Positions 1,815 through 3,928 of a DNA stretch of 5,486 nt are shown here, piece after piece. Every line of letters starts with the position of its first letter. The first letter of the stretch is position 1. Source of the stretch: Enterobacteria phage ID18; the sequence record NC_007856.1, one strand, 5' to 3'. The notes below the pieces were generated by a model. That model searched no databases, was not told the DNA's origin, and was given only the letters and a program-made list of their open reading frames with translations. Both the position numbers and the translations under genes were made by a program.

Positions 1815-1995
1815 CGCGCTTGATGAAGAAAAATGGCTCAATATGATGGGCGCTCTTCTTAAGGACTGGTTCCGCTATGAACAACATTTCGTACATGGCA
1901 AAGAATCAATGCTTGACATTCTAAATGAACGTGGCCTATTATCCACCTTGCCAAATGGCTTAACTTACAAAGGAATCAAAAATGAAAGCAAATGA
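1726..1995 (+). CDS. C: Protein C (89 aa; switches stage II to stage III DNA synthesis and assists ssDNA packaging)
   Basis: ATG at 1726-1728 overlaps the A stop TGA at 1727-1729 (ATGA). The product [21 protein letters not shown]...[13 protein letters not shown]...[13 protein letters not shown] matches phiX174 protein C. The track ORF 1708..1995 begins at an upstream GTG and is probably over-extended. Confidence 0.85.
1913..1942 (+). promoter_or_regulatory. Candidate promoter pD (inside gene C, driving D-E-J-F-G-H)
   Basis: Perfect -35 TTGACA at 1913-1918 and -10 TATTAT at 1937-1942 with an 18-nt spacer, about 40 nt upstream of the D start. The homologous phiX174 sequence GCTTGACATTTTAAAAGAGCGTGGATTACTATC is the known pD location. 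Confidence 0.55.
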
Positions 1996-2443
1996 GAACG
2001 CAGTAGCCTTTCAAACCGCTATTGCCTCCATCAAACTTATTCAGGCATCTTCTGTTCTTGACCTGACTGAGGACGATTTCGAATTCTTAACTCGTGACCG
2101 TGTATGGATTGCAACTGACCGCTCCCGTGCTCGCCGCGCTATTGAGGCTTGCGTTTATGGAACTCTGGACTTTGTGGGATACCCTCGCTTTCCTGCTCCT
2201 ATTGAGTTTATTGCTGCCGTCATTGCTTATTATGTTCATCCCGTTAACATTCAAACGGCATGTCTTATTATGGAAGGCGCTGAATTCACCGAAAACATCA
2301 TTAATGGTGTCGATGCCCCGGTTAAAGCCGCTGAACTCTTCGCGTTTACCTTGCGTGTACGCGCCGGAAACACTGAGCTTATTACTTACGCAGAAAACAA
2401 TGCGCGTGAAAAACTGCGCGCTCAAGGAGTGATGGATGTCTAA
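1982..2443 (+). CDS. D: External scaffolding protein D (153 aa)
   Basis: ORF with AAGGA at 1970-1974 about 7 nt before the ATG. The product is nearly collinear with phiX174 protein D (FQTAIASIKLIQAS..VLDLTEDDF, YGTLDFVGYPRFPAP, IAAVIAYYVHPVNIQTACLIMEGAEFTENIINGV). The start overlaps the C stop at 1993-1995. Confidence 0.92.
   Translation: MKANENAVAFQTAIASIKLIQASSVLDLTEDDFEFLTRDRVWIATDRSRARRAIEACVYGTLDFVGYPRFPAPIEFIAAVIAYYVHPVNIQTACLIMEGAEFTENIINGVDAPVKAAELFAFTLRVRAGNTELITYAENNAREKLRAQGVMDV
2157..2432 (+). CDS. E: Lysis protein E (91 aa; single-gene lysis, MraY inhibitor), nested in gene D in the +1 frame
   Basis: ATG at 2157 with GAGG at 2144-2147. The product MELWTLWDTLAFLLLLSLLLPSLLIMFIP... 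has the hydrophobic N-terminal transmembrane segment with the conserved Pro21 and the ...RLPCVYA... C-terminal region of phiX174 E. The track ORF starts at an upstream GTG (2094) and is over-extended. Confidence 0.85.
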   Translation: MELWTLWDTLAFLLLLSLLLPSLLIMFIPLTFKRHVLLWKALNSPKTSLMVSMPRLKPLNSSRLPCVYAPETLSLLLTQKTMRVKNCALKE

Positions 2444-2516
2444 AAAATCTATTCGCCGCTCTGGTGGCAAATCTAAAGGTGCTCGCCTCTGGTATGTTGG
2501 CGGCACACAATTCTAA
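2436..2516 (+). CDS. J: DNA-binding/packaging protein J (26 aa; small basic core protein)
   Basis: Not in the ORF track (short). AGGAG at 2425-2429, 6 nt before ATG 2436. Hand translation gives MSKKSIRRSGGKSKGARLWYVGGTQF (26 aa), highly basic with the C-terminus GARLWYVGG.QF shared with phiX174 J. The short length is G4-like (phiX174 J is 38 aa). Stop TAA at 2514-2516. Confidence 0.8.
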   Translation: MSKKSIRRSGGKSKGARLWYVGGTQF

Positions 2517-2522
2517 TCTCTA

Positions 2523-2544
2523 AGGGGCTTCGGCCCCTCTATTT
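2523..2544 (+). terminator. J-F intergenic hairpin AGGGGC-TTCG-GCCCCT followed by CTATTT; candidate intrinsic terminator / mRNA-stabilising stem-loop
   Basis: Perfect 6-bp GC-rich stem (2523-2528 with 2533-2538) closed by a TTCG (UUCG-type) tetraloop, followed by a T-containing tail. The analogous position in phiX174 carries the post-J terminator. Confidence 0.55.
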
Positions 2545-2555
2545 AAGGATACAAA

Positions 2556-3836
2556 ATGTCTAACGTACAAACTTCCGCTGAACGTATTCCGCATGACCTC
2601 TCACATCTGGTATTCGAAGCTGGTAAAATCGGACGCCTTAAAACTATCTCCTGGACTCCTGTTGTCGCTGGTGATTCTTACGAAACTGAAATGGTAGGCG
2701 CTATTCGTCTTTCTCCTCTCCGTCGTGGTCTGGCTGTCGACTCTCGCGTCGACGTCTTTACTTTCTATATCCCTCATCGTCATGTCTATGGTCAACAATG
2801 GATTGACTTTATGAAGACTGGCGTTAACGCTACTCCTCTGGCTCCGGTAACTTGTTCCTCTGGCTGGGATTCTGCTGCCTATCTTGGCACTATCCCGTCA
2901 ACTAATTTGAAGGTTCCTAAATTCCTTCATCAATCTTATCTCAATATTTACAACAACTACTTTAAGCCGCCGTGGTCTAATGACCTCACCTATGCTAACC
3001 CATCTAATATGCCCGCTGAGGATTACAAATGGGGCGTTCGTGTCGCTAACTTAAAATCTATCTGGACCGCGCCCCTTCCTCCTGATTCATTAACTAAGCA
3101 GGATATGACTACTGGCGCTACCACTATCGATATTATGGGCCTACAAGCTGCCTATGCTAAACTCCACACTGAACAGGAACGTGACTATTTCATGACTCGC
3201 TACCGCGATATTATGAAAGACTTTGGCGGTCACACCTCCTACGACGGTGATAACCGTCCTCTGCTCCTGATGCGCTCTGAATTTTGGGCCTCTGGCTATG
3301 ACGTCGACGGTACTGACCAAACTTCATTGGGTCAGTTCTCTGGTCGCGTCCAACAAACCTTTAATCATAAAGTGCCTCGCTTCTATGTTCCTGAGCATGG
3401 CGTAATTATGACTTTATCTGTTACTCGCTTCCCTCCTACTCACGAAATGGAAATGCACTATCTCGTCGGTAAGGAATCTCTGACTTATACTGACATTGCC
3501 TGTGACCCTGCTCTTATGGCTAACCTGCCTCCGCGTGAAATTGAGGTAAAAGACCTCTTTCACTCTGCTGGTACTGGTAAATTCAAAATTGCCGAAGGTC
3601 AATGGTATCGTACTCAGCCTGACCGCGTTGCCTTCCCTTATAACGCTCTTGACGGCTTCCCTTTCTATTCTGAACTGCCGTCTAATGATATTCTCGAACG
3701 TGTACTTGTTCGAACTGATAACTATGATGAAATCTTCCAGTCTATGCAACTTGCACACTGGAACATGCAAACTAAATTTAACACTACTGTATATCGTCAT
3801 ATGCCTACCACTCGTGATGGCATCATGACGTCATAA
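2556..3836 (+). CDS. F: Major capsid protein F (426 aa)
   Basis: AAGGA at 2545-2549, 6 nt before the ATG. The product is collinear with phiX174 F along its full length (MSN.QT.AER.PHDLSHL, RLSPLRRGLA.DS, IDIMGLQAAYA.LHT.QERDYFM.RY, GTDQTSLGQFSGRVQQT, LPPREI, FKIAEGQWYR, TTRD.IMTS). Confidence 0.95.
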   Translation: MSNVQTSAERIPHDLSHLVFEAGKIGRLKTISWTPVVAGDSYETEMVGAIRLSPLRRGLAVDSRVDVFTFYIPHRHVYGQQWIDFMKTGVNATPLAPVTCSSGWDSAAYLGTIPSTNLKVPKFLHQSYLNIYNNYFKPPWSNDLTYANPSNMPAEDYKWGVRVANLKSIWTAPLPPDSLTKQDMTTGATTIDIMGLQAAYAKLHTEQERDYFMTRYRDIMKDFGGHTSYDGDNRPLLLMRSEFWASGYDVDGTDQTSLGQFSGRVQQTFNHKVPRFYVPEHGVIMTLSVTRFPPTHEMEMHYLVGKESLTYTDIACDPALMANLPPREIEVKDLFHSAGTGKFKIAEGQWYRTQPDRVAFPYNALDGFPFYSELPSNDILERVLVRTDNYDEIFQSMQLAHWNMQTKFNTTVYRHMPTTRDGIMTS

Positions 3837-3845
3837 AACAAAACG

Positions 3846-3881
3846 TTGAACGGGTACAAATTTTAATTTGTGCCTGTTCAA
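3846..3881 (+). other. F-G intergenic imperfect hairpin (about 13-bp stem including G-T/G-U wobble pairs, AT-rich loop)
   Basis: 3846-3858 (TTGAACGGGTACA) pairs with 3869-3881 (TGTGCCTGTTCAA) around the loop AATTTTAATT. It sits in the 92-nt F-G untranslated region, which in phiX-like phages holds the post-F terminator and complementary-strand priming signals. Confidence 0.4.
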
Positions 3882-3928
3882 GGTTGAACAAGCGAAGCGC
3901 GTTAGCTAACTTACTTAAGGAAATTCTC

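Follow-up and report, generated by a model that had tools for sequence, protein, structure and literature searches.

Introduction

In phiX174, G4, alpha3 and PJNS002, the J protein is a small component of the virion that is bound to both the single-stranded DNA and the coat protein F, and the solved structures of these phages contain 60 copies of it. J coats the replicative-form DNA, is packaged together with the single strand and guides the DNA between pockets near the five-fold axes (PMC13386984). Its basic domains tether the DNA, and its hydrophobic C-terminus attaches to the inner face of the capsid (bioRxiv 10.1101/2025.09.12.675911). The same study notes that G4 J, with 25 residues as compared with 38 in phiX174, is without parts of domains 0 and I, and that a designed genome tolerated G4 J; in earlier work, as cited there, the swap of G4 J into phiX174 was not viable. 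For the phages PJNS001 and PJNS002, models were built from 60 copies of an F-G-J monomer, and a 26-residue J was solved (PMC12328618). J is of current interest, as its length and N-terminal domains govern the compatibility of genome and capsid. Here we describe the J locus of phage ID18 and compare it with these systems.

Results

A 26-codon frame between genes D and F encodes the J protein

The window, that is, the whole stretch of DNA analysed, is the complete 5486-nt genome of Enterobacteria phage ID18 (NC_007856.1, DQ079908). The genome search matched 568 records, which reduce to a few dozen separate lineages. The window is colinear with its nearest records, WA14 (DQ079909, 98.4%) and EMCL318 (97.5%), and agrees at every base with the IMG/VR isolate genome IMGVR_UViG_638275834_000001 (5486 nt). 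The features around the frame of interest are as follows.

1982..2443, + strand: gene D, external scaffolding protein, 153 aa (Pfam gpD, 276.7 bits)
2157..2432, + strand: gene E, lysis protein, 91 aa, nested in D (Pfam Microvir_lysis)
2424..2429, + strand: Shine-Dalgarno-like AAGGAG, read from the sequence, 6 nt upstream of the J ATG and inside the end of D
2436..2516, + strand: gene J, 26 codons plus TAA, encoding MSKKSIRRSGGKSKGARLWYVGGTQF, with 7 K/R and no D/E
2523..2538, + strand: J-F intergenic hairpin A-GGGGC-TTCG-GCCCC-T from fold prediction, with the core GGGGC-TTCG-GCCCC at 2524-2537
2545-2549, + strand: ribosome-binding site of F, AAGGA
2556..3836, + strand: gene F, major capsid protein, 426 aa (Pfam Phage_F, 527 bits), partner of the J C-terminus

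The order D-(E)-J-F, all on the + strand, is canonical and is the same in annotated relatives; J is annotated between D and F in WA14, EMCL318, ID2 and G4. According to the ORF listing and its translation, the frame opens at ATG 2436 and closes at TAA 2514-2516, with the codons ATG TCT AAA AAA TCT ATT CGC CGC TCT GGT GGC AAA TCT AAA GGT GCT CGC CTC TGG TAT GTT GGC GGC ACA CAA TTC TAA. It is a known gene, annotated as gpJ of ID18 (YP_512795.1 / AAZ49374.1), and an exact protein look-up of its product returned gpJ of ID18, of WA14 (AAZ49386.1) and of EMCL318 (AUG88361.1). In the WA14 annotation gpJ has the same coordinates, 2436-2516, and the J DNA is identical. The same look-up with the E sequence returned gpE of ID18 only. 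Directly 5′ of the J ATG, the in-frame codons are TGG (2433-2435) and TGA (2430-2432), so that no longer form can arise from an upstream start.

The original prediction, a hand translation, had proposed an open frame of 26 aa for J, and the same coordinates and translation were recovered here. It had also stated that the gene was invisible to the ORF track; this fits our listing, from which the J ORF was absent at the default 60-aa minimum and in which it appeared at a 20-aa minimum. At that setting, the listing shows 14 ORFs of 20 aa or more that overlap the 1 kb around J, so a 26-codon ORF by itself is no evidence of a gene; homology and context are.

We therefore turn to the homology. The Pfam profile Microvir_J (PF04726, gathering cutoff 30 bits) matched ID18 J with 60.5 bits (E 2.3e-16), residues 1-26 being aligned to profile positions 1-29 of 29. 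Among PDB chains, G4 J (1GFF) matched with E 4.4e-12 and 23 of 24 aligned residues identical, and further matches were PJNS002 J (9K3N, 26 aa), alpha3 J (1M06) and phiX174 J (2BPA/1RB8). The alignment to the solved J chains reaches the C-terminus, where the capsid-binding segment ARLWYVGG.Q[FY] is present, and the block KGARLWYVGG.Q (K14-G23 and Q25 of ID18 J) is invariant in all six aligned J proteins, as expected from the proposed retention of an LWYVGG.QF motif. The alignments with G4, alpha3 and phiX174 J proteins that had been suggested as a check bear out the identity of the frame as J, the protein being 96% identical to its G4 counterpart and 75% to that of alpha3. Neither an in-frame start further upstream nor a lack of resemblance to J proteins, the two findings named as speaking against the prediction, was seen. 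The basic N-terminal region of ID18 J is missing a block of 12-13 residues that phiX174 J has (the length depends on the alignment); the number of basic residues is 7 of 26 in ID18 (0 D/E), 7 in G4, 8 in alpha3 and 12 in phiX174. The claim that the extended basic region of phiX174 is missing thus agrees with both counts.

With ID18 as the reference, the differences in J at first, second and third codon positions number 0/0/3 in EMCL318, 0/0/6 in a metagenome relative and 0/1/6 in G4. As judged from these alignments, this third-position bias is the signature of purifying selection on the frame. Frame, homology, gene order, substitution pattern and conservation in relatives are all direct observations on J, and the segment 2436-2516 is almost certainly gene J, encoding the small internal DNA-binding and packaging protein of a G4-like bullavirus (Microviridae, Gequatrovirus).

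Wider searches gave few additional J sequences. A tblastn search of the phage collection with the 26-aa J peptide returned no matches, probably owing to the short query and the low-complexity filter. A profile search for J among 1.84 billion representative proteins returned 70 matches, of which 12 were read. Four of these were J-sized: a pair of 25-26 aa, a phiX174 variant of 38 aa and a fragment of 29 aa. In the remaining eight, phiX174 J was fused to unrelated sequence; no new J diversity was found among the 12. Many more matches, about 100 aa long, resemble these fusions in the geometry of their match. Like the eight, they appear to be artefacts, in which the phiX174 sequencing spike-in was assembled into chimeras, and not real proteins.

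In ID18 and phiX174 the initiating methionine of J is followed by Ser; in G4 and alpha3 this second residue is Lys, and in ID2 and PJNS002 it is Ala. Among the deposited structures, the J chain of phiX174 has 37 residues for a gene of 38 codons; the G4 and alpha3 chains have the full coded length. Because residue 2 of ID18 J is Ser, the rule for N-terminal methionine excision predicts that Met1 is probably removed, leaving a mature protein of 25 residues, the length of G4 J. Such a protein would be the same as G4 J except for the residue at each end.

The D/E/J junction has one base fewer than that of phiX174

The last 8 nt of D overlap J, and the D stop codon TAA (2441-2443) is made from J codons 2-3 (TCT AAA). 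The ID18 junction is GGAGTGATGGATG; within 2424-2443 of the window it has the form GGAGTGATGGATGTCTAA. The junctions of phiX174, ID2 and ID12, and the G4 sequence directly before the J start, read GGAGT(G/A/T)ATGTAATG, that is, the GGAGTnATGTAATG form. There is therefore a net loss of one base, from ATGTAATG to ATGGATG, in the lineage of ID18, WA14 and EMCL318; the ID18 junction is common to these phages and to a 92%-identical metagenome contig (L016). Because of the missing base, the usual TAA of D is lost, D is extended by Asp-Val and the 8-nt overlap is created: the D protein ends in ...GVMDV* in ID18 and in ...GVM* in phiX174, G4, ID2 and ID12. The missing base also places J in the frame of E, as TGA-TGG-ATG, with the E stop and J start separated by a single TGG codon. 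In phiX174, G4, ID2 and ID12, E and J are in different frames. Gene E runs 32 nt into J in ID12 and WA3.

The Shine-Dalgarno-like AAGGAG is present in five of six aligned genomes and in most of those tabulated, the exceptions being alpha3 (ATGGAC) and WA3 (AAGGTG); the conservation in relatives that had been named as worth checking is thus found in most of those compared. The 42-nt spacer between D and J in G4 (G4 2414-2479) has the look of an inserted segment bounded by copies of the D end, CAAGGTGTCATGTAA where D actually terminates and AAGGAGTTATGTAATG directly before J; the ID12 form is uninterrupted.

Since the TAA of D sits in J codons 2-3, the Ser2-Lys3 codons of J would be locked to the termination of D. 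We consider it conceivable, though rather unlikely, that the 8-nt overlap alters re-initiation on J by ribosomes finishing the very abundant D and would thereby represent a naturally occurring form of translational coupling by which the ratio of D to J is set. If true, the coupling might also explain why this lineage keeps an extra Ser codon that is absent from G4.

The flanking intergenic regions

The hairpin between J and F is paired in 11 of 11 bullavirus genomes (100% of cells), with compensatory changes, G-C to C-G and A-U, at two of its five pairs. A terminator scan did not report it as terminator-like; it misses the simple terminator pattern because its T tail is too weak. An Rfam search of the whole genome found no family.

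The F-G intergenic region of ID18 (3837-3928) showed no significant similarity to the F-G region of G4, the site of the annotated G4 complementary-strand origin. It aligns with the F-G region of phiX174, as do those of WA14 and ID2, and shares with phiX174 a predicted 16-bp hairpin around AAATTTTAATTT (3846-3881 in the window), with compensatory changes, and a conserved block GGTTGAnCAAGCGAAGCGCG. These features suggest that the G4-like ID18 has a phiX174-type origin and not one like that of G4. In phiX174, the region carries the PriA (n') recognition site. The G4-type origin, which ID18 appears to lack, is a property of G4 itself and not a formal criterion of the clade, and its apparent absence leaves the placement unaffected. 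Both the D/E/J junction and the F-G region of ID18 resemble phiX174 more than G4; ID18 thus descends with the G4-like phages without sharing all of their hallmarks.

Clade placement and alternative readings

The genome of ID18 aligns to those of G4, ID2, ID12 and WA3 with 80-83% identity over 96-99% of its length, to phiX174 with 71% over 82%, and to alpha3-like phages with about 70-74% over 43-49%. The F protein is 88-90% identical to those of G4, ID2, ID12 and WA3, about 80% to ID62 and WA13, 66% to phiX174 and 63-65% to alpha3 and St-1. Genome and capsid-protein identity thus support membership of ID18 in the G4-like clade (genus Gequatrovirus). The original prediction had made the same placement from the short J. 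The placement stands; the length of J excludes only the phiX174 group. The comparison value of 38 aa given for phiX174 J was correct, and the J proteins of G4 and alpha3 have 25 and 24 aa, respectively. Because alpha3-like J is even shorter, the assignment to the G4-like group rests on sequence identity, not on length. Within that group J has 25 aa in G4, ID12 and WA3 and 26 aa in ID2, ID204, WA14, EMCL318 and ID18.

A short J of this kind might instead mark an alpha3-like phage or a recombinant. Alpha3-like phages do have a short J, of 24 aa, and in ID18 the first nine bases of J (ATGTCTAAA), the terminus of E (...KE*) and the F-G region are of the phiX174 type and not the G4 type. However, J is far closer to G4 than to alpha3, F shows the same preference over alpha3, St-1, ID62 and WA13, nearly the whole genome aligns to G4-like genomes as compared with less than half to alpha3-like ones, and NCBI lists WA14 under Gequatrovirus G4. 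The phiX-like local features are common to ID2 and could equally be ancestral. We consider an alpha3-like or recombinant origin very improbable, and retain the G4-like assignment. Equally improbable is the production of J within a longer protein, by read-through of the E stop codon TGA (2430-2432) or from an upstream start. The shared frame of E and J in the ID18 lineage, which sets it apart from phiX174, G4, ID2 and ID12, speaks in its favour. Nevertheless, J begins at an ATG that follows an AAGGAG of its own at the canonical distance, and no start codon lies between the E stop and the J ATG. The arrangement is absent from all other clades, so the function of J cannot depend on it, and no evidence points to a fusion of E and J, which would tie a lysis protein of the membrane to a peptide of the capsid interior.

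The remaining alternative is that the 26-codon frame occurs by chance and that the true product of the region is, for example, the tail of D or E or one of two antisense ORFs from the ORF listing:

2087-2506, - strand: antisense ORF of 139 aa, across D and J
2382-2510, - strand: antisense ORF

Short ORFs are indeed abundant in the surrounding 1 kb, and the 139-aa antisense ORF overlaps the J region. Against this, the J frame scores twice the gathering score of Microvir_J and matches solved virion proteins, and substitutions are synonymous in the J frame; on the basis of this homology and substitution pattern we ruled out a chance ORF, to which we assign a practically negligible probability. 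The antisense stop-free stretch measures 141 aa in ID18, 108 aa in the 98.4%-identical WA14 and 82-96 aa in ID2 and G4, and in each of the relatives the + strand carries all of the annotated genes. The ORF at 2087-2506 is thus not conserved and, by this comparison, very unlikely to be a gene.

J length and genome length

The lengths of J and of the genome are inversely ordered, with a Spearman rho of -0.96 among 15 genomes that represent only three or four independent lineages:

J of 38 aa: genomes of 5370-5386 nt
J of 26 aa: genomes of 5475-5489 nt
J of 25 aa: genomes of 5529-5577 nt
J of 24 aa: genomes of 6051-6094 nt

PJNS002, with a 26-residue J and a genome of 5486 bp (PMC12328618), fits this order. 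The proposed covariation of J length with genome size thus holds as an ordering, its direction being inverse and the independent lineages behind it few. The contrast between 38 and 24-26 aa is possibly meaningful and has already been discussed in the field. As for the contrast between 26 and 25 aa, the phages with compact genomes and a 26-aa J may simply share ancestry; a link of this contrast to genome size was considered and rejected, one residue per subunit being negligible in mass.

Discussion

The family suggests how J of ID18 would act. Translation would start at ATG 2436, 6 nt after AAGGAG and within the tail of gene D, and transcription would run on into F past the conserved GC hairpin. 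By analogy with phiX174 and G4, the basic N-terminal half of J would bind the replicative DNA, and the protein would enter the procapsid together with the single strand at stage III synthesis, where it would neutralise part of the phosphate charge and tether the genome to the inner capsid surface. The hydrophobic C-terminal LWYVGGTQF would sit in a cleft of the coat protein F, with one J per F and 60 per virion. DNA binding, copy number and capsid contact are here carried over from the family. If 60 copies are assumed on the same grounds, J would contribute 60 x 7 = 420 positive charges for 5486 phosphates (~8%); the corresponding arithmetic for phiX174 gives 720 positive charges for 5386 phosphates (~13%).

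Gene J of ID18 itself adds little beyond its annotation: the sequence is catalogued and nearly identical to a structurally solved G4 protein. The case does illustrate that a 26-codon gene missed by length-filtered ORF tracks, as well as the clade of a microvirus, can be recovered by a reader without tools.

Among known systems, the gpJ proteins of WA14 and EMCL318 have the same amino acid sequence as that of ID18, and all share the D/J junction GGAGTGATGGATG. G4 J (25 aa; PDB 1GFF chain 3) has the same 7 basic residues, short N-terminal region and position between D and F. ID18 J differs from it in the extra Ser after ATG (MSKK versus MKK) and in a C-terminal Phe in place of Tyr, and G4 has its 42-nt spacer where ID18 has an 8-nt overlap. 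phiX174 J (38 aa; 2BPA, 1RB8) and ID18 J are alike in the C-terminal KGARLWYVGG.QF and the first codons ATG TCT AAA, and the two phages share the ribosome-binding context AAGGAGTGATG and an E stop just before J; the phiX174 protein has 12-13 more residues in the N-terminal basic region and 12 basic residues as compared with 7.

The J proteins of ID2/ID204 and of PJNS002 (9K3N) have 26 aa, as in ID18, with a small second residue (Ala) and genomes of 5475-5486 nt. They differ from ID18 J in their N-terminal halves (MAKGSRRRSPSRS and MAKSYRRGSSGKK), and ID2, unlike ID18, keeps the phiX-type one-base TAATG overlap of D and J. Salmonella phage PJNS002, with a genome of 5486 bp, a J of 26 residues and an F of 429, was described as a Sinsheimervirus (PMC12328618); its J length and genome size look more G4-like than phiX174-like. 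The J proteins of alpha3, St-1 and ID62 (24 aa; 1M06) are likewise short and carry the same C-terminal motif as ID18 J, from which they differ in their 75% identity, their 8 basic residues and their genomes of 6051-6094 nt.
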